A DNA stretch of 64,000 nt. Source: Gammaproteobacteria bacterium (lineage in GTDB: Bacteria > Pseudomonadota > Gammaproteobacteria > Eutrophobiales > Eutrophobiaceae). Below are positions 3,342 through 60,279 of this stretch, in pieces (position 1 is the stretch's first letter; each line of letters starts with the position of its first letter). The stretch lies in assembly GCA_965215365.1 (NCBI GenBank), contig CBDCDS010000003.1, positions 1,696,001 through 1,760,000 on the forward strand, written 5' to 3'. The translations under genes and the position numbers were made by a program. The notes under the pieces were generated by a model. The model ran no database searches. It was not told the origin of the DNA and worked only from the letters and a program-made list of their open reading frames with translations.

Positions 3342-3917
3342 CTACTGCCTGTGGAACGGCATCTTGCGCCCGGAAAACCGGGTTTTCAGGAATTCCATCT
3401 GGTCGGCCAGTATTTTCCTGTTGGACAGAGCCAGATACTCGGCCCAGTTGGGCACGTAAGGCACTGCCAGCAATGACATCTTCGCCTCGTCGGGAGTCTT
3501 GTTGCCCTTGCGGGTATTGCAGGAACGGCAGGCGGTGACGACATTGGACCAGCGGTCCTTGCCCCCGCGTGAGATGGGAATGACATGATCGCGGGTCAGG
3601 GCGCCGCCGCGGCCGCTGTTGTTGCCGCAATACATGCAGATATGGGCGTCGCGTAGAAACAGCTCGCGGTTGGTCAACGGCGGCACGTTACGGTACACAT
3701 GCTTGTGATTGCGCGAATGCTTGATGGCAATAATGGAGTTGATCGAGATGCTGGAACGCAGCCCGGTCAACCTGCAGTTGCCGCCATGGAACGTGAACGT
3801 TTCATCGCCGGCGGTCCAGCCCACCATGTCGCGGCAATACAGACTCACCGCGTCCTGCCAGGGGATCCAGGTCACCGGCATACCGGAAATATCAAGTCGC
3901 AAGATAAGTGGTTTCAT
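3342..3917 (-). CDS. HNH endonuclease (McrA-like)
   Basis: RD..ICMYCG..LTRDHVIPISRGG.DRWSNVVTACRSCN..KG motif. Confidence 0.9.
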   Translation of the reverse strand: MKPLILRLDISGMPVTWIPWQDAVSLYCRDMVGWTAGDETFTFHGGNCRLTGLRSSISINSIIAIKHSRNHKHVYRNVPPLTNRELFLRDAHICMYCGNNSGRGGALTRDHVIPISRGGKDRWSNVVTACRSCNTRKGNKTPDEAKMSLLAVPYVPNWAEYLALSNRKILADQMEFLKTRFSGRKMPFHRQ

Positions 3918-5972: not shown

Positions 5973-6221
5973 TCATAGTTCTTGCGCGCGTTCCGGCGCA
6001 AATCCGGCCAGTTCCCCGCTGTCATTATCCTGAGTCAAAATTCGCACTTTCTGCTCGGCCGCCGCCAGGGCTTGCTGGCAGCTGCGGGTCAGGCTGACGC
6101 CGCGCTCGAACTGTTGCAGGGATTCTTCTAGGGTCAGGTCGCCTTTCTCCATGGTTTCGACCAGCTGCTCCAGTTCCGCCAGCGCTTTTTCAAAATCGAT
6201 TTCAGGTTTGGTATCGGACAC
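5973..6221 (-). CDS. xseB: Exodeoxyribonuclease VII small subunit
   Basis: FEKALAELEQLVETMEKGDLTLEESLQQFERGVSL..CQQAL..AEQKV; conserved xseB-ispA order. Confidence 0.97.
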   Translation of the reverse strand: MSDTKPEIDFEKALAELEQLVETMEKGDLTLEESLQQFERGVSLTRSCQQALAAAEQKVRILTQDNDSGELAGFAPERAQEL

Positions 6222-7146: not shown

Positions 7147-8281
7147 TGTCCAGGTTCAATACATATGAGACTCAGAGGCAGGCTGTGTGAGTTGTTGATA
7201 ATACTCCATTGGGGTTAATAAACCCATACCGTCATGCGGCCGGTAGGTATTGTAGTATTGCTGATACTCGGCCAGTTTGCGGTTGATGGCGGCCACGGTC
7301 AGTGGACCCTCGTAGAACGGATAGAACTCATAGCGGCTGGTGGCATTGGCGCGTTCTACACAGCCGTTGTATTCGGGTTTTTTCGGGGGCAGCACGTACA
7401 GGGGGATTCCTAAGTCCTGGCAAGCCTGCTCGAACTCATCTTAAGAACTCCGAGCCGCCATCGACTTGGATAGAACGGATGGGAAACGGCGCCTCACCGA
7501 GCAGCGCCTTTAAGAAGCGCCGGGCATTGCCACTGGTGGCCCGACTGTAGGCTCGCAGCGCACTCCATTTGCTCACCGGACAGACGGCCTTGAACTCCTT
7601 CACCGTGACGCCGTCCGTGAAGCCGACACTCATGTGGTCTATCTGCATCAACTCCCCCGGCGCCTTAGCCTTCATCCCGTAGCGCCAGCGCTTGGCATGA
7701 TGGGTAAACGCCCGGCGGCGCTTAGGCTTCACCCGGCCATAGTAAAACGCCACCGGCTTGACCCGACCTAGCCGCACCCGCTTCGCCACGATGCGCCCGA
7801 CCGTACTCTCGCTCAAAGTCCAGCCCTGCTCGCGCACCCCCACCCGCCAGAGCTTACGCTTGCCCCATAACGGATAACGTTGGCGAAGGTGCAAGACCTG
7901 CTGCTCGTGCTGGCGCGTCCATTGCGGCACACGCCGCCGCCGCGGCGCACGAGAGCCACACCCCAGACCCTTCAGCCCATGTTCACGATACCGCTTCAAC
8001 CAACGGTAGTAGGTCGCCCTCGACCCACCTACTGCTGCCAGTGCCGTCGCCTCACCACACCCATCCTCGCGTAACGTCGCAACTAATTCCAACTGCTGCA
8101 AACGACCGAGCGCGTCAGCATCGGTAGTATCATCGACGCGCCAACTGCGATATGATTTCACCCGCTTACCTTTTGATCTGCATCGGGTAGTCCTCCTGTG
8201 TAAGTTAATCGAAATCACTTTACACACTTAACTACCCGATTTCTTTATCTAAAGAGTCTCACTTGTTTCTGAACCCGGACA
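7147..8281 (-). mobile_element. IS481-family insertion sequence with frameshifted transposase
   Basis: TIRs TGTCCAGGTTCA (7147) and TGAACCCGGACA (8270-8281). Integrase-core motifs PGELMQIDH, IQVDGGSEF and KPEYNGCVERAN are split over ORFs 7436-8227 and 7156-7395; no target duplication seen. Confidence 0.9.
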
Positions 8282-14409: not shown

Positions 14410-16954
14410 CTACAACGTCAATAACGCAGCATTCCCGCCGATTGCGGCTGTGTTGATGGTGCAAGTTTGTTCCGTGGCGAAGCGTAACAGGTAATGCGGG
14501 CCGCCCGCTTTGGGGCCGGTGCCGGACAGGCCGCAGCCGCCGAAGGGTTGCACGCCCACTACGGCGCCGACCATGTTGCGGTTGACGTAGATGTTGCCGA
14601 CCCGTACCCGTTCACGGATGTAGTGCGCGCGTTGTTCGATTCTGCTCTGGATGCCGAGGGTCAGCCCGTAGCCCAGAGCGTTGATCTGTTCCAGCAACGG
14701 CGCCAGTTCCGCGGCGTCATAACGTAATACGTGCAGTACCGGGCCGAACAGTTCTTCTTGCAGTTCGGCAACCTGGAAAGCCACCAGGGTGGCCTGCTCT
14801 GCCGGTTTGGCGATGACCGTATTCCCGGCGGCCAGCGCCGCTGCGATCTGGCCGGTAAAGATGGCCACGGGAAAGTTCCACGGGCTGATGCAGACAAACA
14901 CGCCGCGCCCGCACAAGCGCAGGCTGTTGCTTTCACCTGCGGGCCCCGGCAGCGCGGTTTCAGCGCCCATCAGGGTACGGCTGCAGGCGGCATAGTAGCG
15001 CAGAAAATCCACCGCTTCGCGCACCTCGTCATGGGCGTCGCGCAGGCATTTGCCGGCTTCCAGCACGCACTGCGCGGCTAGCTCCGGCAGGCGTTCCTGC
15101 ATCAGGTCCGCCGCCTTGTCAAGCAGGGCGGCCCGATAGTGTGCAGTGGTGTTGCGCCATGACGGGAATGCCTCAGCGCAAATGGCCAAGGCCTGAGACG
15201 CGACCCCTGTCGTAGCATCCCATACCCGACCGCTACGTATTCTGGTGTGCGCCGGGTTATAAACGCTTCTGGACTTGCCGCGCAGGGATTGGCCGTTGAC
15301 CAGGGGCGCAGCGGTCCACTCTATGCTACGGGCGCGGGACAGGCTATCTAGCAGCAACGCCTGCTGTGTGCGCTCAGCGAAATTGAGGCCGCGGGAGTTC
15401 TGTCGCTGCGGGCGGAACAGGTCCGGCGGTGTCGGTATGCGGGGATGCCGGGTTGTTTGGTTGGCTGGCGTTACCGCCGCGACCGGGTCGGCTACCAATT
15501 CGGACAGAGCGACTCCCCGGTCGGCAATGCGGTTGATAAAAGATACGTTGGCGCCGTTTTCCAGCAAGCGGCGCACGAGGTAGGGCAACAAGTCCTCGTG
15601 CGCGCCTACCGGTGCATAGACGCGGCAGGGGACATTCAAGCCCTGCGGGTTAGTGACATGCGCATACAAGTCCTCACCCATGCCGTGCAGGCGTTGGAAC
15701 TCGAACTCCCGGCCGTCGGCGTGATGGTGGATATAGCTGACAGTGTGCGCGTTATGCGTCGCGAACTGAGGGTAAATGAACGGGCACTGTGTGAGCAGGT
15801 AACGGGCGCAGGCCAGATAGGATACATCGGTATGGTGTTTTAAGGTAAACACCGGGTAATCTGCCAGTCCCTGTTCCTGCGCGCGCTTGATCTCCATATC
15901 CCAGTAAGCGCCCTTGACCAGACGCAGCGGCAGCAGGCGTTGCTGCGCCTCGGCCAGTCCGTTCAGGTATTGCAGCAGGGGTAGGGCACGCTTCTGGTAA
16001 GCCTGCACCGCCAGCCCCAGACCCGCCCAGGCGCGCAGGCTGGCGTGGCCGAACAGGTAGGCAAAGACTGCTATGCTCAATTCCAGCCGTTCTGCCTCCT
16101 CTGCATCGATGGTGATGGCAATCCCGGCGCTGCAGGCAGCTATGCACAGTCGTAGCATGCGCGCGCAGCTCGCGTAACGCACGCGTTGATTGAGTGGGTT
16201 CAAAACGCGGGCAAAGCGACGATAACTTCACTGAAATGCCCGGTTTTTCCAGAATAGTCGTTGCCGCTTCGACCGTCCTGCCCAGGGCCTGAATGGCATG
16301 GGTGTAAGATTGTTCGTAACGGTCCGCAGCGCTGGCGGTCAGAGCCGCTTCCCCGAGCATGTCATAAGAAAAACGATAGCGCCGCAGCATGGGCTTGCCA
16401 CTGCGCTGTAGCGCCTCGTTAATGTTGCGTCCCAGCACGAACTCGGCCGCCATGATTTTCATGGCACTCTTCAACGTGGTACGCAACACCGGTTGCTCCA
16501 GCCGACCCAACAACTTGCGTAACAGATCAGGCAGTGCCCGGGCGCCGTCCTGCTCCCGGTAAAGCAGTTTTCCGGTCAGCATCAGGCCCCAAGTGGAAGC
16601 GTTGACAAATAGCGACGGATCCTGGCCCAGATGCTGCTCCCAGTTTGCTGACGTGAGTTTGTCGGCAATCAGGGAGTCCATGGTGCCGGCATCCGGGATC
16701 CGTAACAGCGCCTCGGCCAGACACATCAGCGCCACGCCCTCCTGGGAGGACAGGTCATAATGGTTGAGAAATGCGTGCAGACCGGAAGCCTGCCCCTGCT
16801 GCGCCCGCACCGCCGCGGCCAGCGTCCGGGCGGTCTCTGCTATCTGCTGCGCCCGTGCAGGTTGCGCCCGCGCCAGCGGCAGCAAGCGCGCGACAATCAG
16901 TCCTTCATCGGCAAGGTAATCGCGGTTGATAGTGGTAAATGGGTCGTCTGTCAT
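14410..16954 (-). pseudogene. putA: Proline dehydrogenase/P5C dehydrogenase PutA, frameshifted and internally deleted
   Basis: PRODH motifs (SYDMLGEAA, RLVKGAYWD, FATHNA, FQRLHGMG, YLVRRLLENGAN) are split by a frameshift near 16160-16170. The ALDH part jumps from AKPAEQA..FQVAEL straight to QEELFGPVLHV, lacking the FTGS, ETGG and catalytic Cys region. Confidence 0.9.
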
Positions 16955-17123
16955 TGGCACAGGTATGAAGCGCTTTCAGCAAGGTGTCGCTAAAAATCAG
17001 CAGCGCTCTTGAAAAAAATTATTTCAAAGAATAGCATTTTATTGTTAAATTAAGTTTTTATTATTTGAAATAAGTAAAATTTAATTCTTTATTTTTTATT
17101 TTTAATAAAATAAAATTATAGTT

Positions 17124-45827: not shown

Positions 45828-46697
45828 ATGTCCGCAACCTATCCGGTACAGGGTGCTGGTCTGGGTCTGCGACGAGCTTTTATCGGTTCGCTCGCAGACT
45901 CGGCCGCTTATCTGTCAGGGATAAACTTTATGGAAGTGGCGCCCGAGAACTGGATCGATGTGGGCGGGCGCTTCGGGCGGCGTTTCCGGCAAATCGCCGA
46001 ACAGGTCCCAATGGTATGCCACGGCCTGTCGTTGAATCTCGGCGGTCCGGCGCCTCTGGATGAGGCATTTCTTCGTAAAGTCAGACAGTTTTTAGATACA
46101 TTTAATGTTCGCTGTTACAGCGAACATTTGAGCTATTGCGCCGACGACGGCCACCTCTACGACCTGATGCCAATCCCGTTTACGGCCGAGGCGGTGCGTT
46201 ATACCGCAGCGAGGATTCGGCGTGTGCAGGATATTGTCGGGCGGCGTCTGGCCATTGAAAACGTGTCCTACTATGCTGCGCCCGGCCAGGAACTGACGGA
46301 ACTGGAGTTCCTCAACAATGTACTGGTTGAGGCCGATTGCGACCTGTTGCTGGATGTCAACAATATCTATGTCAACAGCATCAACCATCGTTATGACGCC
46401 GAGTCCTGGCTGCAGTCGTTGCCGGCGGCGCGTATTGCCTATGCCCACATCGCCGGCCATTACGTGGAGGCTGAAGATCTGCGGGTGGATACTCACGGCG
46501 CCGACGTGATCGACCCGGTCTGGCGTCTGCTGGAGACGGCTTACGATCATTTCGGTGTTTTTCCCACCTTGCTGGAGCGGGATTTCAATATTCCGCCGCT
46601 GGCTACGCTGGTACAGGAAGTTGACAAAATTCGGCAGCTGCAGTCTGAACGGGATTTCGCCTGGCGCGCCACCCCCCGTTCGTCATTCCGGGCTTGA
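45828..46697 (+). CDS. DUF692/MNIO multinuclear iron RiPP-modifying enzyme (HvfB-like)
   Basis: GLGLRR, EVAPENW, HGLSL, YSEHLS, IENVSYY, LLLDVNN.YVN, HIAGH, DTHG, LLERD. Confidence 0.93.
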
Positions 46698-46710
46698 CCC
46701 GGAATCCAGT
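46681..46710. repeat. GTCATTCCGG..CCGGAATCCAG palindromic repeat at the hvfB/hvfC junction
   Basis: cgtcattccgggcttgacccggaatccagt; a degenerate relative lies at 18144-18190. Confidence 0.65.
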
Positions 46711-47506
46711 GAAAGAACCCTCCTTTCAGGATATCCAGTACCGGTTCACCCGGCATATTCGTGACCCGCAACGGGTGTCGGCACCGCAGGACATTGAGGA
46801 GCGGCGCATGGGCATCTATCGGGATTTGCTGTATCGCAATGTGGAGAGCTTCCTGGCGGGCAGTTTTCCGGTATTGCGTAAAACACTCAAGGATACCGAC
46901 TGGCATGAGCTGATACGGGATTATTTCAGGAGCCACCGGGCGCGCACGCCGTTATTTCCGAAAATGCCGCAGGAGTTTTTGCAATACCTGCAGAACGAAA
47001 ATGCAGCCACCGCGAAACTGTACCCGTTCCTGACGGAACTGGCCCACTATGAGTGGGTGGAACTGGCGTTATCCCTGGACGTCAGGGAGATACCGGAGCA
47101 AGGTATCGACCCGGCCGGTGAGCTGCTCTCAGGCCGGCCGGTTCTGAACGAGCTGTCCTGGTCGCTGGCGTATCACTATCCGGTGCATCGTATCGGCCCT
47201 GATTACCGGCCCGGGGAAAAGCCTGCACAACCCACCTGCCTGTTCGTTTACCGGGACCGCCAGGATAAGATCAGGTTTATCGAACTGAACTCTTTGGCCG
47301 CGCGTCTGGTCGATTGTTTGAAAGAGAATAAGGATAACAAGAGTGGTCGCGAGCTGCTCACGGACATAGCGGATGAGAGCGCACACCCGGAGCCGGAAGT
47401 TGTCGTCAGGGGAGGGAGTGCGCTACTGGAAGATATGCGCGCCAAACAAATCATCCTGGGGGTTGTGAAACATTACGCATCCGCAACCTTAGCGCATTCA
47501 ATTTGA
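46709..47506 (+). CDS. DUF2063 RiPP partner protein (HvfC-like)
   Basis: Q..F..HIRDP...RRM.IYR.L...N...FL...[21 protein letters not shown]. Confidence 0.9.
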
Positions 47507-53212: not shown

Positions 53213-53509
53213 TTAGTTCAATGTCCCCACGCGATACAAATACCTGCCCGTGGGGTTGCGCTCAGCGACCGGCAGGCCAAGACTGCGGGCGCCGGCGGCA
53301 TTATCCGGCGCTGCCTCAGTCGGAGTAATGGCCGCATCCTCATACAGACGCCGCACGTTTTCTTCCAGTTCCTCGAAAATCTGCGTGTGCATGGCGTTAT
53401 CTAGGTAGCTGTCGAGCTCACTCGCGTGATTTTCGACACCGGTCAGGATCAACAAACCTGCAATCAAGGCAACAGCAGCAGTTTTTCTGGTAACAATACT
53501 CATGGTCAC
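53213..53509 (-). CDS. Small secreted hypothetical protein
   Basis: Signal-peptide-like N-terminus (RKTAAVALIAGLLILTGVENHA|SE); AAGGAG RBS. Confidence 0.65.
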   Translation of the reverse strand: MTMSIVTRKTAAVALIAGLLILTGVENHASELDSYLDNAMHTQIFEELEENVRRLYEDAAITPTEAAPDNAAGARSLGLPVAERNPTGRYLYRVGTLN

Positions 53510-53525
53510 TCTCCTTTTATATGTA

Positions 53526-53668
53526 AGTTATCTAACTAAATATGGGCAAAAAATAAAGTTTCAAGGGCGTTGAGTAAACCTGGGCGACGGCCAGAAAATA
53601 CTGCGATAACCTGAAGTGCCCTGAATCTTTAATATTATGTTAATAATGCTCATTTAAGTTAAATAACT
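53526..53668. promoter_or_regulatory. Two palindromic AGTTAnnTAACT sites (candidate TetR operators)
   Basis: agttatctaact 53526-53537 and agttaaataact 53657-53668; weaker agtttgttagct 54303-54314 just upstream of the TetR gene. Confidence 0.55.
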
Positions 53669-53700
53669 AACTAAAAATTAATTCAAAAAAAGTTTGTCTT

Positions 53701-54294
53701 CTATACGGCAGCCCGCGCCTGCATCAGGGAGGCCGGAACCTGTTTCTCTATCCACCCGACTACCGCTTTGAGCTGACGTTTCAGCTGCCCGGGGTCATGC
53801 AAAATATTCCCCAGCAATATGATGCCTTGCACGCGTGACACAAATTCAAACCCCAATTCCTCCGCCCGTTCCAGTCCCATGAGGCGAAACTGCTCGGTTG
53901 ACCAGTCCATAAGATATTTCATGCAACTGTCCGCGCTTTCCATAAGTTCCGGGCATTCCTCACTGAGCTCCTGGCAGAGACCACTCAGCGGGCACCCCGC
54001 TTCGGCAAGCTCCCTGCTGTGGCCAATCATCACCTTGAGCAGGTTCATCAGGGCCTCCTTTGGCTCATTGCGCCGGCAACAATTTTTCAAAGTGTGTGAC
54101 AATGACTGCTTGCGCTCCGTTACCACTGCCTTGCAAATATCCTCCTTGGTTTTGAAATAGTAATACACGTTACCCAACGGCACTTTGGCCTCTTCGGCGA
54201 TATGGGCTAGGGTAGTACGATAAAACCCCTGCCGATGAATCAAGGCGTCGGCAGCGCTTATCAAACGTTCACGTTTATCACTTAATCTAGGCAT
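53701..54294 (-). CDS. TetR/AcrR family transcriptional regulator
   Basis: KRERLI.AA..LI..QGF..TTLA.IA..A.VPLGNVYYYFKTKEDI; GCP motif in the C-domain. Confidence 0.93.
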   Translation of the reverse strand: MPRLSDKRERLISAADALIHRQGFYRTTLAHIAEEAKVPLGNVYYYFKTKEDICKAVVTERKQSLSHTLKNCCRRNEPKEALMNLLKVMIGHSRELAEAGCPLSGLCQELSEECPELMESADSCMKYLMDWSTEQFRLMGLERAEELGFEFVSRVQGIILLGNILHDPGQLKRQLKAVVGWIEKQVPASLMQARAAV

Positions 54295-54429
54295 AAACAG
54301 TAAGTTTGTTAGCTCAATGACTAACTATTATATGAGAAAATTCTGGAATGTCAAGTGTTTTTTGAAAAAAATCTTGTCCGGGTTCAGAAACAAGTGGGAC
54401 TCGAATAGATAAAGAAATCGGGTAGGTAA

Positions 54430-55947
54430 CTACTCGCCCCCCTTACCCTGATCTTTTGTTCTGATCTGGTTTTTCTTAACCGTTTTATTTTTGAGCGGTT
54501 TTTCCACCATGGTGGCGGCGTCTCCCTTGAGTGCTATCTCGATGGCGGCGAGGGGATTGTAGCCCTTCAGGGTCATAGACTGCAAGTAGCTGGAGATGCG
54601 GCAGTAGGTGTCGGCGTAGGCGGTGGTTCGGAAGCAGCCGGAGACTTTTTGTTTGACTTTAGCCATACGGATATCGCGTTCGGCGCGGTTGTTGGTGAAC
54701 GGCACGTTGGGGTCGCGGGCGAAGCGGAGGACTTCGGTTTCGTACTTGACGAGGGCATCATGGAGGTTTTGTGCCTCACATTGGGCAATCCGTCCGCGTT
54801 GGCCGGTGAGCCGTTTCGGGGGTGTGGGGAGTTCCCGTTTGGCTTGTGTCAGGATAGTCCGGTAGCGGGTGCGCAGGGACTGGTAGTCGGTCTCGCTGAG
54901 TGCCTTGTTTTTATGTGTGCGCACCTGTCGGCAGGTCTTGAGCAGGAGGCGGCTCATACGTTGGGCCCAGGCATGGCCGTGGGCGTCCTCGATAAAGGCC
55001 AAGTTACGCAACAGGTGACTGCCGCACAGGGCATGCTCGCAGTTGTCATAGGCGAAGTAGCTGGCCCAGCGGTCGTGCACGAGAACACCGCCGTAGCGGG
55101 GGACGATGCCGATGTCCTTGAGGGCGTCCCCGCCCCGCTTGCGGTGGCAGTGTTTCAGTACCAGGTTCCCGGCACTGGTGCTGTGCAGCCAGTGTTGTGT
55201 GCGGTCGATGCGCAAGGAGGTCTCATCGGCGTGCAGCACGGGCTCTGTGAGCAGGCGGGCGATAGCCGCCCGCTCCCACCCGGCCAGGGCCTCATGCACC
55301 CGCGTGAGCCAGGCCAGTAAGGTCGCCTCGGCGACGGCGCGCCCGGTCAGTGCATGAAGTGTCTGCGCCGTACGTTTGAGCGAGAGCATTTGGGCCGTTA
55401 ACAGGTGCGTGGCGAAAGCCACGATGCCAGGGCCGTATTGTAAAGGCCCCGGCATGTCATCGGGAAACGCCCCGTGGGTCTCAGTGCCACAGCGCGGACA
55501 GGTTTTTATCTCGGCGTCAATGGTCAACTCGGTCGTCTCGAAGACTATATCGACCTTGACTCGTCGCACATGGCCGGTGGGGGCGGTGCCTTTGAGATCA
55601 TGCCCGCAGGCCCGGCAGCCGGTCACGGGCACCGTGCGGGTCTGAGCCACCACGCGCCGGGACGCGCTGGGCACCGTCCCGGTCTGCGGCCCCTTGCCCT
55701 GCTTGCCGGGCCGTGTGCGCGCACTGTCATCGGGGTCGGTGCGGGAACTGGGCAGGCTGGAGTTGTGCGCCCCCTTCGGTGTGGTCTTCTCTAAGAACAC
55801 CGCCAGCAGCAACTCGAATAGCAGCAACATCGACTCGAACAGCGCACGCCCTTCGGGACTCAGCGCGCCGTCGGCGCACAACGCCTTAAAACGCATTCGG
55901 ATGGCCTCGAACTCCGCACGCAATGAGGCCTTGTTCACCGTGGCCAT
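54430..55947 (-). CDS. IS66 family transposase (TnpC; no TnpA/TnpB)
   Basis: NSSLPSS, zinc finger C..C..C..C, LHADET, VLVHDRW..Y, HALCGSHLLR, PFTNNRAERDIR..KVKQKVSGCFR; intact ORF. Confidence 0.95.
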   Translation of the reverse strand: MATVNKASLRAEFEAIRMRFKALCADGALSPEGRALFESMLLLFELLLAVFLEKTTPKGAHNSSLPSSRTDPDDSARTRPGKQGKGPQTGTVPSASRRVVAQTRTVPVTGCRACGHDLKGTAPTGHVRRVKVDIVFETTELTIDAEIKTCPRCGTETHGAFPDDMPGPLQYGPGIVAFATHLLTAQMLSLKRTAQTLHALTGRAVAEATLLAWLTRVHEALAGWERAAIARLLTEPVLHADETSLRIDRTQHWLHSTSAGNLVLKHCHRKRGGDALKDIGIVPRYGGVLVHDRWASYFAYDNCEHALCGSHLLRNLAFIEDAHGHAWAQRMSRLLLKTCRQVRTHKNKALSETDYQSLRTRYRTILTQAKRELPTPPKRLTGQRGRIAQCEAQNLHDALVKYETEVLRFARDPNVPFTNNRAERDIRMAKVKQKVSGCFRTTAYADTYCRISSYLQSMTLKGYNPLAAIEIALKGDAATMVEKPLKNKTVKKNQIRTKDQGKGGE

Positions 55948-56615
55948 GTGCACTGTGCCTCCACCGCCATCATCGCCGCCAGCACCGCCAGCCGCTCGGC
56001 CGGGGGCAAGTCACGATAACGCCGCCCCCAGTTCTCAGCCTTGCGCTTGACCTGCTGGCGGTGCGTGAAGTTGCGCCCCGCATAGCGCACCCAGTGCACC
56101 CGGTCCGGCACAAAATTGAACCAGACCCGCTCGGTCACCACCCCGCCCTGATTCATCACCTGCAAGGACACACTGCGCCAGCCCGCCAGCACCTCATCAT
56201 ACAAGGCCGAAGGATACCCCGACACCATCACCGCACAGGGCAGCCCCTGCAGTAACGCCAGCAGCGCCTCATGGTCTGAGTCCTCGTAGTCATACCGGTA
56301 ACGGTGCCGTGACTTGCGCGTGCTGTGCAGGTAGGGCGGGTCGCTGTACACCAACTCCGTGCCGTCAAACGGAAAAGTCGCCAACCAGCGGTGACAACAC
56401 CCCTGCACCAACTCCACCGGATACCTACACGTAAACCCCGCCAACGCCCGCACATCAAGATCAATCCCAATGTTGCGCAACGCCGCCGGCTTGCGCTGCA
56501 TAATCGCCCCGCCGCCTAAGTGTGTCTCAATGTACACACTGTGCGGCGGCATCATCGCAATGAGCGGCTGGCACAGACCCGTCGTGGCTTTCGACCCTCG
56601 GTACGCATTCCCCAT
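55935..56615 (-). CDS. Dam/D12-like DNA adenine methyltransferase
   Basis: YRGSK, YIETHLGGGA (motif I variant), GIDLD, VYSDPPY (motif IV), VMVSGY; intact, overlaps the transposase start. Confidence 0.88.
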   Translation of the reverse strand: MGNAYRGSKATTGLCQPLIAMMPPHSVYIETHLGGGAIMQRKPAALRNIGIDLDVRALAGFTCRYPVELVQGCCHRWLATFPFDGTELVYSDPPYLHSTRKSRHRYRYDYEDSDHEALLALLQGLPCAVMVSGYPSALYDEVLAGWRSVSLQVMNQGGVVTERVWFNFVPDRVHWVRYAGRNFTHRQQVKRKAENWGRRYRDLPPAERLAVLAAMMAVEAQCTWPR

Positions 56616-56622
56616 GACGACC

Positions 56623-56665
56623 AACATAACGCCATGACGCTATGTTGTCAAGGACGCCTTGACAA
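56623..56665 (-). promoter_or_regulatory. Putative sigma70 promoter for the MTase-transposase unit, with two inverted repeats
   Basis: TTGACA (56651-56646), 17 bp, TATGTT (56628-56623), 7 nt, ATG. Inverted repeats are TTGTCAAGG-n3-CCTTGACAA and AACATAGCG-n6-CGTTATGTT. Confidence 0.6.
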
Positions 56666-57172
56666 AAAATTCAGTAGAATTAGAGGGAGGGGGCGAGTAG
56701 TTACTCGGGTAGTTAAGTGTGTAAAGTCATTTCGATTAACTTACACAGGAGGACTACCCGATGCAGATCAAAAGGTAAGCGGGTGAAATCATATCGCAGT
56801 TGGCGCATTGATGCTACTACCGATACGACCGCACTCGGTCGTTTGCAGCAGTTAAAATGGGTTGCGAGGTTACGCGAGGAGGGGTGTAGTGAGGCGCCGG
56901 CACTGGCAGCAGTAGGTTGGTCGAGGGCGACCTACTACCGTTGGTTGAAGCGGTATCGTGAACATGGGCTGAGGGGTCTGGGGTGTGCCTCTCGTGCGCC
57001 GCGGCTCAGTTCTATCCGTTCTACGAAGGACCCCTGACCGTGGCCGCCATTAACCGGAAACCGGCAGAGTATCAGCAGCACTACAACACCTGCCGCCCGC
57101 ATGACGGTATTGGTTTATTGATCCCAATGGAGTATTATCAACAACTCACACAGCCTGACCCATGAGTCTCAT

Positions 57173-57395
57173 GGCCACCTCTAAAAATTAGAGGTGGCCA
57201 TGCAGCATAGGGACATGCTGCCATTTTTAAGCATGTAAGTGCTTGAAAATGAAGGAAACGGAAAATCACACTTTTCCGTTTCCGTCTCACAAATCTGTTT
57301 GGAACAGATTTGGACATCCACAGGATGCCCGCAGGGGGCGTCCCAAGGATGGGACGCATCAAAAAATACCACGGAGGGTATTTTTAGAGGTTCCC
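57173..57395. repeat. Multi-hairpin MITE, longest copy (223 bp, about 8 hairpins)
   Basis: Contains all modules of 14216/25490 plus extra hairpins caaatctgtttggaacagatttg, gacatccacaggatgcc and gcgtcccaaggatgggacgc; a degenerate end follows at 57401-57438. Confidence 0.85.
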
Positions 57396-57438
57396 TTAAA
57401 GGCACCATCTGAAAATAAAATACCAATGGAGGGGGCAC

Positions 57439-58920
57439 GTGCTATCAGCAGTTGAAGCAACCAGAGTAAAACTATCAAAGACTATCGAGGCGACCAAAAA
57501 GTCAGCTTTAGGCCAGTTTCTTACACCAGTAAACACTGCTGCTTTTATGGCTGGTCTTTTTCCTGACGGGGGAGGTTATTGCCGTTTACTTGATGCAGGC
57601 GCTGGAATTGGTTCGCTTTCTGCTGCTTTTCTGGAACGGTGGAACGCTGCTGGTTTTCATTTCCAAAGCGTAGAGTTGGACGCTTTCGAGATTGACGATT
57701 CGCTGCCTGTGTATCTGGATCAAACACTGGAAAAATATAAAAATATTCCGGGTTTTGTCTCAACAATCAGAAAAATGGATTTCATTCATGCTGCGACTGA
57801 GTGGCTCTCTGGAAGTTTTTTTGCAGAAGATTTCCAGCAATATACACATGCCATCCTTAATCCACCTTATAAAAAGATCAACAGCAATTCGCCGCATCGG
57901 TTGGCCCTGCGCCGTGTCGGTATTGAGACGGTTAATTTGTATTCAGCCTTTGTGGCACTGAGTGTAGCGTTGTGTGCTCCAAAGGGACAAATTGTGGCAA
58001 TCATTCCCCGTAGTTTCTGTAACGGACCATATTATCGTCCATTCCGTGATTTCATCCTTACTCGCACAGCTATTCGTCATCTGCACTTATTCGAATCCCG
58101 CGACAAAGCATTCAGGGACGATAACGTGCTACAGGAAAATATTATCATCAGACTCGAATGTGGTGCAGAACAAGGGCTGGTAACGGTTTCCACCTCTGTT
58201 GATGATACTTTTACGGACCTGACAGCCCGTAGTTTTCCATTTGACCAAATCGTGTCTCCAGACGATTCAGAACGTTTTATTCATGTGCCGTCATCTCTCC
58301 CAGACGGCATAAAACCCACCCCGGCCATTCGCCATACCCTTGCCGATCTTGGCCTCAGTGTTTCCACTGGCCCGGTAGTTGACTTCCGGCTGAAAAAGTA
58401 TTTGCGCAACATGCCGGAACCAGTGTGCGTTCCCTTGCTTTACCCTCGCCATTTTAATGGTTGCAATACTATCTGGCCGGCTCTTGATGCGAAGAAACCA
58501 AATGCTATCCTGCATAATGGCATTACTGAAAAATGGTTATTCCCAAGCGGTTATTATTGCGTGGTTCGTCGTTTTTCGTCCAAGGAAGAAAAACGGCGAA
58601 TAGTGGCAAGTGTAGTGAACCCTGAGGTCTTTGGTGATGCGACATTGCTCGGCTTCGAAAACCATTTGAACCTGTTTCATGAAAATAAGAGCGGTTTGCC
58701 AAAAGCGCTGGCATACGGATTATCGGTATTCCTCAACTCAACCCCTGTGGACGAAAATTTTCGGCGGTTCAGCGGCCACACTCAAGTCAATGCCACTGAT
58801 CTCAGACTGATAAAATATCCCAGCCGTAACAGGCTGATTGAACTTGGAAAGTGTGCCATGCAACACGGGAACCTCTCACAGGCCGTAATTGATGACAAAG
58901 TGTGCACACTTACCACATGA
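57439..58920 (+). CDS. Type II R-M N6-adenine methyltransferase (PstI/BsuBI-like)
   Basis: LGQFLTP, LLDAGAGIGSL, ILNPPY, NLYSAF, PRSFCNGPYY, FENHLN, FSGHTQVNATDL; lower GC. Confidence 0.93.
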   Translation: MLSAVEATRVKLSKTIEATKKSALGQFLTPVNTAAFMAGLFPDGGGYCRLLDAGAGIGSLSAAFLERWNAAGFHFQSVELDAFEIDDSLPVYLDQTLEKYKNIPGFVSTIRKMDFIHAATEWLSGSFFAEDFQQYTHAILNPPYKKINSNSPHRLALRRVGIETVNLYSAFVALSVALCAPKGQIVAIIPRSFCNGPYYRPFRDFILTRTAIRHLHLFESRDKAFRDDNVLQENIIIRLECGAEQGLVTVSTSVDDTFTDLTARSFPFDQIVSPDDSERFIHVPSSLPDGIKPTPAIRHTLADLGLSVSTGPVVDFRLKKYLRNMPEPVCVPLLYPRHFNGCNTIWPALDAKKPNAILHNGITEKWLFPSGYYCVVRRFSSKEEKRRIVASVVNPEVFGDATLLGFENHLNLFHENKSGLPKALAYGLSVFLNSTPVDENFRRFSGHTQVNATDLRLIKYPSRNRLIELGKCAMQHGNLSQAVIDDKVCTLTT

Positions 58921-59876
58921 ATGACAAGCACGATTATATCAGGGCCGCAAATGAGATCATCGTCTCGCTGGGCTTGCCGGGAACTCAACAAAACGAACGC
59001 TCTGCCCTTTGCTTGCTGGCTTTACTAAACCTCACTCCTGGCAAGGCATGGTCTGAAGCGGAAGACCCGCTTATGGGCATTACTCCCATTATGGATTGGG
59101 TGCGAGAGCGCTATGGCAAAGAATATGCGCCAAATACCCGAGAGACTATCCGTCGTCAAACAATGCACCAGTTTTGTGATGCAGGTATTGCACGTTATAA
59201 CCCGGATCAACCAGACCGTCCGGTAAACAGTCCACATGCAGTCTATCAAATCGAACCTGTTGCGCTGGGCCTGCTGCGTACTTTCGGCACAGATGAATGG
59301 AATGGCAATCTGAGCGGTTATCTTGCTGAACGTGAAACTTTGGTGGCCCGCTACGCCAAAGAGAGAGAACAAAATCGTATTCCGGTAAAAATCACACCAA
59401 ATACGGAAATAACACTGAGCCCCGGCGAACACAGCGAACTGCTCCGCGCTATCATCGATCATTTCATCCCTCGCTTCGCACCGGGCGGTTTGCTGATCTA
59501 TGTTGGTGACACCGGAGACAAGTGGGGTTACTTCGATATCGACTTGCTGGCAGAACTCGGTATAGAAGTAGATTCACATGGCAAAATGCCGGATGTGATT
59601 ATCTATTACAAAGAGAAAAATTGGCTGTTTCTGGTTGAAGCAGTTACCAGTCATGGTCCCGTCGATGGCAAGAGACATGACGAACTTACCAATCTTTTTG
59701 CCGCGTCAAAAGCAGGTTTGGTTTACGTAACCGCTTTCCCAAACCGTGCCGCCATGGGCAGGTATCTCGTTCAAATTGCTTGGGAAACGGAGGTGTGGGT
59801 AGCCGATGCTCCATCACACCTGATTCACTTTAATGGCCTGCGTTTTCTGGGGCCGTACGAGGTTGATCCAGAATAA
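58917..59876 (+). CDS. BsuBI/PstI family type II restriction endonuclease
   Basis: QQNERSALCLLALL, YAPNTRETIRRQT.HQF, HGKMPDV, WLFLVEAVTSHGP, IAWETEVW, HLIHFNG; ATGA overlap with the MTase. Confidence 0.93.
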   Translation: MNDKHDYIRAANEIIVSLGLPGTQQNERSALCLLALLNLTPGKAWSEAEDPLMGITPIMDWVRERYGKEYAPNTRETIRRQTMHQFCDAGIARYNPDQPDRPVNSPHAVYQIEPVALGLLRTFGTDEWNGNLSGYLAERETLVARYAKEREQNRIPVKITPNTEITLSPGEHSELLRAIIDHFIPRFAPGGLLIYVGDTGDKWGYFDIDLLAELGIEVDSHGKMPDVIIYYKEKNWLFLVEAVTSHGPVDGKRHDELTNLFAASKAGLVYVTAFPNRAAMGRYLVQIAWETEVWVADAPSHLIHFNGLRFLGPYEVDPE

Positions 59877-59910
59877 GTTTGGCGTTGAAATTTTCTGAGA
59901 ACTTATCGAT

Positions 59911-60279
59911 ATGAGGTTCATGGGTATTGAACCTGAACACATCAGCCCTATCCCCGTGGATGAAGGCGGTGGTTATCTGATTTCTTTTCCCGATTTGCCG
60001 GGATGTATGGCAGATGGAGAGAGTATTGAAGACGCCGTATCAGAAGCACGTGATGCGTTCAAGGCATGGATGATGGCGGAACTGGAAGATCAGACAACAG
60101 TGCCTGCGCCCAAGACTTACAGCGGCCAGTTTGTCCAACGCATCCCGAAAAGTCTGCACTTGCAACTCGCTAAATGCGCGGAAAATGAAGGGGTCAGCCT
60201 GAATCAACTAACGGCTACTTTACTGGCGCAGGGAGTGGTGCGTTTAACTCAACCAAACACCGTTGAAAATACTGCGTAA
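59911..60279 (+). CDS. Orphan HicB family antitoxin
   Basis: EGGGYLISFPDLPGCMADGE..E.A...ARDA...YSGQFVQRIPKSLH..LA..AE.EGVSLNQ; no hicA upstream. Confidence 0.88.
   Translation: MRFMGIEPEHISPIPVDEGGGYLISFPDLPGCMADGESIEDAVSEARDAFKAWMMAELEDQTTVPAPKTYSGQFVQRIPKSLHLQLAKCAENEGVSLNQLTATLLAQGVVRLTQPNTVENTA

Follow-up and report, generated by a model that had tools for sequence, protein, structure and literature searches.

Insertion sequences (ISs) are usually described as a transposase gene and its ends, with regulation borrowed from the host, the control of IS10 and IS50 by Dam being the textbook case. Members of the IS66 family typically produce an 8-bp target duplication and have inverted ends starting with GTAA; those of the ISBst12 type, an ISfinder group without tnpA and tnpB, carry the transposase gene alone. 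Dam methylation governs IS10, IS50 and IS903 (PMC9296519). Transporter ISs (tIS) have a passenger gene inside the IS ends, and among them IS220 (IS1380 family) is said to carry a methyltransferase (PMC11891212). Here a stretch of 64,000 nucleotides of a gammaproteobacterial genome (assembly GCA_965215365.1, contig CBDCDS010000003.1, positions 1,696,001 to 1,760,000; the window) was analysed, which contains at 54426-56704 a complete IS66-family element whose transposase gene is preceded by a gene for a putative Dam-like adenine methylase. The methylase gene and its promoter appear to form a cassette that has passed between IS families and that may regulate the operon it heads. The features of the element, in window coordinates, are the following.

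54418-54425, no strand: left copy of the 8-bp target-site duplication (TCGGGTAG), a direct repeat matched outside the inverted ends
54426-56704, genes on the minus strand: complete IS66-family insertion sequence of 2279 bp, with 13 full genomic copies, 10 of them with distinct 8-bp duplications
54426-54441, no strand: transposase-distal terminal inverted repeat (right end as transcribed), 16 nt, 100% complementary to 56689-56704
54430-55947, minus strand: tnpC-type IS66 DDE transposase, 505 aa from ATG 55947 (PF03050, 145.9 bits; NF033517, 249 bits)
55935-56615, minus strand: gene resembling compact N6-adenine methylases of the Dam/D12 class, 226 aa from ATG 56615, the probable start codon
56623-56651, minus strand: promoter-like site of the cassette (TTGACA 56651-56646, 17-nt spacer, TATGTT 56628-56623), an architecture shared with relatives
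56640-56644, minus strand: CATAG half-site within the promoter spacer; the partner half-site is degenerate (TTATG)
56689-56704, no strand: terminal inverted repeat beside the methylase promoter (left end as transcribed); GTAACTACTC[GA]CCCC is common to related elements
56705-56712, no strand: right copy of the 8-bp target-site duplication (TCGGGTAG), a direct repeat

The inverted ends (GTAACTACTCGCCCCC), complementary at 16 of 16 positions, enclose two open reading frames (ORFs) on the minus strand: one at 55935-56627, of 230 aa at its longest and including VYSDPPYL, the other at 54430-55953, of 507 aa from GTG 55953 and of 505 aa from ATG 55947. This ATG is the likely start of the transposase, since its relatives align from residue 3 of the window protein, and with it the 3′ end of the methylase gene overlaps tnpC by 13 nt. 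The methylase probably starts at ATG 56615, giving 226 aa and an almost leaderless message, because the first ATG of its ORF (56627) falls within the -10 hexamer; close homologues have 221-226 aa, in agreement with this choice. The remaining ORFs of the element, whose sequence is about 63% G+C, lie inside or overlap the two genes on either strand. The anatomy can thus be given with near certainty as a two-gene operon on the minus strand, with a sigma-70-type promoter just inside one end, then the methylase gene and the overlapping transposase gene. The original prediction, made from the sequence alone, had described 16-bp inverted repeats and a perfect 8-bp duplication around 2279 bp, two intact co-oriented ORFs with a DPPY methylase overlapping the start of TnpC by 13 bp, and a methylase in the position of tnpA/tnpB. 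All of this was recovered: GTAACTACTCGCCCCC and TCGGGTAG were located at matching coordinates, the overlap was reproduced with ATG 55947, and the element holds only two genes, with neither tnpA nor tnpB.

The element is present in the 2.73-Mb assembly as 13 full copies at an identity of at least 99.9%, together with nine partial matches; 12 of the 13 are exactly 2279 bp long with at most two substitutions, and the remaining copy has a 1-nt deletion. Ten full copies are bounded by a perfect 8-bp direct repeat, different at each site, which is the signature of the whole two-gene unit transposing independently; since the same 2279 bp recurs 13 times, 10 of them with its own duplication, the boundaries of the element stand above chance. 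No internal stop was found in the methylase or transposase gene window of any of the 13 copies, and in all of them the methylase gene lies inside the inverted repeats, which makes the element a tIS. It is therefore intact, recently active and self-mobile, as had been proposed, and the methylase-TnpC pair, expected at several loci with different 8-bp duplications, was seen in this way at 10 of the 13 genomic copies. The other three full copies have no duplication, and two of these have the left flank of a third copy. The copies at C1:66951, C3:879837 and C3:1921378 of this genome share the same 12-nt left flank (ATTTATTTCAAG), with a matching right-side duplication in only one, which suggests either recombination between IS copies or a repeated target. 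Intact methylase genes number 15 in this genome. Within the genus the distribution is patchy, the methylase being present in four of the 18 other genomes searched, with 1 to 29 copies each; chromosome C2 of one genome of the same genus (G021) has two methylase lineages, 85% and 69% identical to the window protein, in about 12 and 16 copies.

The second protein of the element is an IS66-family DDE transposase, its scores lying well beyond the cut-offs of PF03050 (23.1 bits; E 2.1e-42) and of the IS66 model NF033517 (180 bits). The element has, besides the transposase, the 8-bp duplication and the inverted ends beginning with GTAA. The canonical IS66 group, in contrast, has tnpA and tnpB before tnpC, whereas only the methylase gene and tnpC are present here, and by its gene content the element falls with the tnpA/tnpB-less members of the family and not with the canonical group. 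A search of the whole genome (completeness 97.56%) gave no match to TnpB_IS66 (PF05717), so that the element moves without the canonical IS66 accessory proteins. The zf-IS66 domain gave no Pfam match at E ≤0.01 in the window TnpC, yet CRACG...CPRCG is visible, and the TnpC of a related element (L061) matches PF13005. The close TnpC homologues carry the NCBI name “IS66 family transposase” only.

The methylase family is large: when proteins are clustered at 50% identity, 6131 cluster representatives match at E ≤0.001 and 608 at E ≤1e-30. Relatives at 65-90% identity were sampled at 160 loci, 80 from genomes and 80 from metagenomes, and a downstream ORF was taken as readable when it had at least 120 aa and a start no further than -80 or +250 nt from the methylase stop; 134 loci qualified, the other 26, mostly short contigs, being without such an ORF. 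The downstream gene codes for an IS66-type transposase at 121 of the 134 loci (a group of 120 and L237), for a DDE_Tnp_1-type transposase at four (the L021 group and L019) and for an ISKra4-type transposase at two; four more loci have an IS701-type gene, which represents nested insertions, and three are unclear. The pairing is thus general, where the original prediction had considered that a one-off capture might be found; the 160 loci are non-independent, 27 of them coming from one alphaproteobacterial genome and the downstream proteins forming 51 clusters at 85% identity. Members of the IS66 group tested with NCBIfam all matched the IS66 model, the exceptions by score being one complete protein (173.6 against the cut-off of 180) and one truncated ORF well below it. 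The distance from the methylase stop to the next start is mostly -4 to +18 nt, a free-standing methylase was seen at only one locus (L056) among the 134, and all 160 loci gave a stop-free match across the aligned region. The recorded hosts belong to Gamma-, Alpha- and Betaproteobacteria, Chloroflexota and Acidobacteriota, and several of the genomes are from marine-animal-associated or sediment sources.

The loci with other transposases indicate how the cassette may have moved. At L053, the cassette and a transposase of the ISKra4 type (NF033572, 345 bits) lie together between 23-nt inverted repeats (3753-3775 and 6161-6183), flanked by a 9-bp direct repeat (AAATGACAT); the element ends coincide with contig-end repeats of that assembly, and a 93%-identical copy is found with different flanks on an unrelated metagenome contig. 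With its closest IS66-type relative (L061, 87.6%), nucleotide homology is confined to a stretch that opens at the promoter, 51 nt before the start of the methylase gene, and closes with the stop codon of that gene. DDE_Tnp_1-type transposases, 52% identical to each other, follow the methylase in two genomes, where the genes overlap by 4 nt or are 12 nt apart, and the detectable nucleotide homology of these elements to the IS66-type ones is limited to the methylase coding region. Judged by these alignments, the unit that is mobile between families is a cassette made of the methylase gene, plus its promoter in the ISKra4 case. The DDE_Tnp_1 unit at L021, present three times in its genome, extends past the 4.9 kb examined, and the position of the cassette inside IS ends is therefore shown for the IS66 and ISKra4 types only. 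Two other families were considered as recruiting families and rejected: the IS1634 gene of L033 is an insertion relative to L034 and thus nested in an IS66-type element, and at the IS701-type loci about 80 nt of the 5′ end of tnpC persist after the methylase stop, so that these too are nested in IS66-type elements.

The phylogeny is in line with such movement. In a quick maximum-likelihood tree, supported by the Shimodaira-Hasegawa-like approximate likelihood ratio test (SH-aLRT) only, all 117 rows of IS-borne methylases group in a single clade with an SH-aLRT of 98, seven phage sequences falling outside it, and the ISKra4- and DDE_Tnp_1-linked methylases are nested at different places among the IS66-linked ones. 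Furthermore, there are IS66 elements in which the transposase shares only 25-34% identity with that of the window and the methylase still shares about 70% with the window protein; a steady methylase beside a diverged transposase fits either exchange of the cassette or a much stronger constraint on it. Taken with the tree, the alignments lead us to conclude that IS66 elements and no fewer than two unrelated transposase families have exchanged the cassette.

The methylase itself is divergent. The window sequence alone gave no match to PDB sequences with phmmer; a profile of 41 sequences reaches DpnM (E 4.9e-10), Escherichia coli Dam and T4 Dam, aligning with the Dam enzymes over the N-terminal G-x-K and S-adenosylmethionine (SAM)-binding part and over the DPPY part. 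It covers DpnM residues 16-82, and its positions 71 and 82 align to DpnM 82 and 183. Among the 41 diverse relatives G11, H29, G38, D96, P97, P98, H119, G184 and R190 are invariant, and Y99 of the DPPY motif is kept in at least 90%. The SAM-binding motif I takes the form ETHLGGGA, in which G38 is invariant and G40 almost invariant, and G11 and K13 are conserved in the region of motif X. The AlphaFold model (predicted local distance difference test score 90.7) has a Rossmann-type core and ends in a basic two-helix tail (187-226; long helices at 187-205 and 209-226). Foldseek places E. coli Dam first among the structures similar to it (E 1.4e-6, template modelling score 0.51). The MTase_II model of PADLOC matches the protein at E 5.2e-21, and PHROGs likewise calls it a DNA methyltransferase. 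The protein is best filed, by sequence and predicted fold, as a compact and divergent branch of the Dam superfamily, and it is likely to be an active N6-adenine DNA methylase.

The gene is under purifying selection. In 5007 pairs from 120 distinct genes, limited to dS 0.1-1.5, the ratio of non-synonymous to synonymous substitution rates (dN/dS) has a median of 0.18 and an interquartile range of 0.15-0.23; DPPY is present in 120 of the 120 distinct IS-borne genes and the motif-I-like stretch in 119. A neutral hitch-hiker, captured once by an IS66 ancestor and merely carried along, is very hard to reconcile with this dN/dS and with catalytic motifs that are all intact, nor would it be expected to show a stop-free match at the 160 related loci, 13 intact local copies out of 13, independent moves into other IS families and an extremely conserved promoter. 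In its favour, ISs with passenger genes, methyltransferases among them, are a recognised class (PMC11891212); even so, we regard this explanation as highly improbable.

The same conservation bears on the idea that the protein acts as a non-enzymatic cofactor of transposition, its fold and basic C-terminal helices binding DNA in replacement of TnpA and TnpB. The methylase does sit in the tnpA/tnpB position, and the element has transposed at least 10 times in a genome without TnpB_IS66; however, a purely structural role would not demand that DPPY and the SAM-binding glycines be kept in 120 and 119 of 120 genes, and the same protein serves the unrelated ISKra4 and DDE_Tnp_1 transposases, which have different ends. 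Single-gene IS66 relatives of the ISBst12 type, moreover, move, as far as is known, without any accessory protein. A cofactor role is accordingly considered improbable.

The region upstream of the methylase gene is conserved to an unusual extent. When 100 distinct upstream sequences were anchored on the last TTGAC before the gene, the -35 element TTGACA was invariant except for its final A (93%), the spacer was of 17 nt and the -10 element followed the pattern TA-n-G-n-T. Within this frame, TAG occupies spacer positions 9-11 in 99-100% of the sequences and CTA positions 22-24 in 96-100%. As RNA polymerase is not known to require the bases of the spacer, another factor must constrain these triplets, and it would be one that travels with the methylase whichever transposase follows. 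Together with their neighbours, the triplets make up an inverted repeat, CATAG-N10-CTATG, in the spacer/-10 region, and the motif is retained in the ISKra4- and DDE_Tnp_1-linked cassettes. A leader hairpin was also sought: for a transcript from the expected start none of 93 sequences had z below -2, and with a post-hoc definition starting inside the -10 hexamer 24 of 93 did, a figure that is suggestive only. In the relatives with a hairpin (L063, L080, L075, L193, L244 and others) its sequence is variable, the 5′ arm starting in or just after the -10 element and the 3′ arm ending at the start codon; such a hairpin could mask translation signals in read-through transcripts. The window element has none between promoter and methylase start.

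More distant relatives of the methylase, at 40-52% identity, are found on viral contigs of about 35 kb (257 confirmed loci). At the four viral loci inspected the gene is near P2 gpA-like replication genes, portal and terminase, and the possibility that these contigs (~36 kb) are Mu-like transposable phages was ruled out on this ground. Eight of 60 phage loci with related methylases have three to seven CATAG/CTATG in the 165 nt upstream, where the background expectation is about 0.2, and pooled over the 60 loci CATAG is 3.7-fold enriched, the second strongest of all 5-mers. One viral contig (L106:2880-2997) has seven CATAG/CTATG in about 110 nt before the methylase gene of a P2-like phage; two distant phage relatives (L162 and L163) have repeated GTAG/CTAC motifs instead, including TTGACA-ACGTAG-N10-CTAC, which hints that the motif changes along with the methylase. 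The methylase is presumably the only gene common to these phages and the IS elements, and the simplest reading takes CATAG to be where the methylase itself acts. CATAG is on these grounds a lead as the candidate site of the enzyme; as a published methylation motif, it was not found among the papers listed by the literature search.

The phage relatives, and the plasmid ones, lend themselves also to a different explanation, which is the main rival to self-regulation: the methylase would be an anti-restriction or host-range cargo, an orphan enzyme modifying the DNA of its carrier so that carrier and IS survive restriction after transfer or after the arrival of a new restriction system. Besides the ~35-kb viral contigs with P2 gpA-like genes, 190 plasmid records have related methylases, all below 60% identity, of which 133 are predicted to be conjugative, including the IncP-1 “upf31.0”; the patchy distribution in the genus (four of 18 other genomes) fits frequent horizontal arrival, and the window copy adjoins a PstI-like restriction-modification pair. 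On the other hand, a methylase made only after entry shields incoming DNA poorly and a chromosomal IS gains little from it; the invariant spacer triplets and the tight coupling to the transposase are left unexplained, as is the fact that the cassette always heads a transposase operon in three unrelated families. An anti-restriction role is therefore held to be unlikely, with some real chance of being correct.

The mechanism proposed for self-regulation is that the methylase would recognise CATAG-N10-CTATG in the spacer/-10 region of its own promoter, and that methylating or occupying this repeat would feed back on transcription of the methylase-transposase operon. How much transposase is supplied would then be set by whether the element's own promoter is methylated, and the input could be, for example, the transient hemimethylation that follows replication or a methylase dose rising with copy number. 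Such a circuit would do by the element's own means what host Dam does for IS10, IS50 and IS903, and would be able to operate in any host and with any transposase behind the cassette. The original prediction had raised as possibilities that the methylase shields the element from restriction, regulates its own transposition or rewrites the host methylome; among these functions, the conserved promoter repeat favours self-regulation. For the mechanism as a whole, that is, an active methylase acting on the promoter repeat and tuning the operon, the chances appear nearly even, inclining slightly towards its being wrong.

Several observations weigh against it. The window methylase scores 18.6 bits with PF02086 (D12), under the cut-off of 22, and 22.9 bits with TIGR00571, far under that of 114.85. 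DpnM residues 83-182, about 100 residues which we take to be the DNA target-recognition insert of Dam-type enzymes, have no counterpart in the window methylase; because the segment by which Dam recognises GATC is missing, homology does not reveal the specificity. Among 101 distinct promoters, only 44 have the repeat in its strict form, CATAG-N7-10-CTATG, and 71 have it when the criterion is relaxed, and in the window element itself the second half-site is degenerate, with TTATG overlapping the -10 hexamer in place of the CTATG of most relatives. The centres of the half-sites are separated by about 15 bp, a spacing that suits a symmetric dimer poorly, and 52 of the 60 phage loci have no CATAG cluster. 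The repeat could, alternatively, be the target of a host factor or belong to a promoter of an unusual kind. Finally, CATAG occurs 3218 times in the host genome (observed/expected 1.32) and is neither depleted nor otherwise marked.

The frequency of the motif also raises the possibility of an effect at the level of the host, where the many copies would methylate the chromosome at a short motif, benefiting or entrapping the host, for instance by changing gene expression, by protecting against methylation-sensitive defences of competitors or by addiction, and any effect on the IS would be secondary. The number of intact methylase genes speaks for it, 15 in this genome of 2.7 Mb and as many as 29 in that of a relative, and a 5-bp motif such as CATAG offers thousands of sites. 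The gene is nevertheless always tied to a transposase and a promoter inside IS ends, the free-standing form being rare (L056, one of 134), and we know of no host phenotype for the cassette, so that we consider a role of this kind rather improbable.

Returning to self-regulation, its broader form would see in the cassette a portable epigenetic governor for DDE transposons, in which a methyl mark on CATAG in its own promoter acts as a host-independent switch, replication-coupled or copy-number-sensitive. This is advanced tentatively, as a possibility about which we are more doubtful than confident; if true, it would explain the uptake by unrelated IS families and the tens of copies in symbiont and sediment bacteria.

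As to its surroundings, the element is contained in a stretch of lower G+C (53250-60250), most of which, when the element is set aside, has values of about 0.44-0.54. One flank is a TetR-family gene (53701-54294); the other comprises a decayed transposase fragment (56717-57037), the PstI-like restriction-modification pair (57439-59876) and a HicB antitoxin gene, and the rest of the window is made up of housekeeping genes. In the pair, an Eco57I-type methylase gene overlaps a gene for a BsuBI/PstI-family restriction endonuclease, the HicB gene following at 59911-60279. The stretch, with its IS, restriction-modification and HicB genes, looks like a small defence and mobile island. The original prediction had gone further and described a window full of decayed mobile elements, which was not borne out, a Pfam scan of 50 ORFs giving two transposase-like helix-turn-helix fragments only (7436-8227 and 56717-57037). 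The insertion site is one arm of an inverted repeat (TCGGGTAGT, 56705-56713, and ACTACCCGA, 56753-56761) and adjoins a broken transposase N-terminus in two frames (56717-57165, with HTH_23/HTH_29 matches); the target of the insertion may have been the end of an older IS, now decayed.

Three further loci were noted in the window. About 70 bp outside the IS end, at 54327-54354 on the minus strand, there is a sigma-70 promoter with 12 of 12 consensus positions (TTGACA, 16 nt, TATAAT), facing the TetR-family gene. At 14410-16960, also on the minus strand, a PutA-like proline dehydrogenase/aldehyde dehydrogenase appears as two overlapping ORFs (14410-16203 and 15752-16960), which could be due to a frameshift, a pseudogene or an assembly error. 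At 45828-47506, a gene for a modification enzyme of ribosomally synthesised and post-translationally modified peptides, of the MbnB/TglH/ChrH type, is followed by one of the DUF2063/NGO1945 type, a pair typical of a small peptide-modification locus.

An element with its own methylase and a matching promoter, if the proposal is true, would be a self-contained unit of epigenetic control, transferable between transposon families and usable in hosts devoid of Dam. If the proposed target is also true, the cassette, with thousands of homologues in public data, would supply adenine methylation in abundance to genomes from the environment and from symbionts, a source which to our knowledge has not so far been tied to it, and it would have relevance to methylome-based binning and to the reading of orphan methylases. 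The element offers, in addition, a compact predicted methylase of 226 aa with a putatively new specificity and a clean test of whether transposons evolve their own control of copy number.

Compared with the systems described so far, the element has in common with the tnpA/tnpB-less members of IS66 the IS66-type DDE transposase, the 8-bp duplications, the GTAA ends and the lack of tnpA and tnpB, to which it adds a Dam-like methylase gene with its own promoter, overlapping the transposase gene. With E. coli Dam, T4 Dam and DpnM the putative methylase shares the Rossmann fold, the N-terminal G-x-K, the SAM-binding motif and DPPY, whereas the recognition insert of about 100 residues is theirs only and the basic two-helix tail is confined to the window protein. 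The orphan Dam-family methylases of P2-like prophages and conjugative plasmids (such as the IncP-1 upf31.0) are members of the same family, 40-52% identical and just as compact in architecture, some of the phage copies also having CATAG clusters upstream; unlike the IS-borne ones, they are unlinked to a transposase and fall outside the IS-borne clade.

Dam control of IS10, IS50 and IS903 resembles the mechanism proposed here in that adenine methylation in the transposase promoter sets the level of transposase; there, however, a host methylase acts on GATC, whereas the window element would use its own putative methylase and the candidate site CATAG. A cassette of promoter and Dam-like methylase common to IS66, ISKra4 and DDE_Tnp_1 elements was not found described in a full-text literature search, whose scope did not extend to ISfinder, TnCentral and REBASE. 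As in the tIS, the ends enclose an additional gene that travels along when the element moves; here, however, a conserved cassette of promoter and gene heads the transposase operon and is common to hundreds of elements and to several IS families, which points to the extra gene being a working part of the element and not its cargo.

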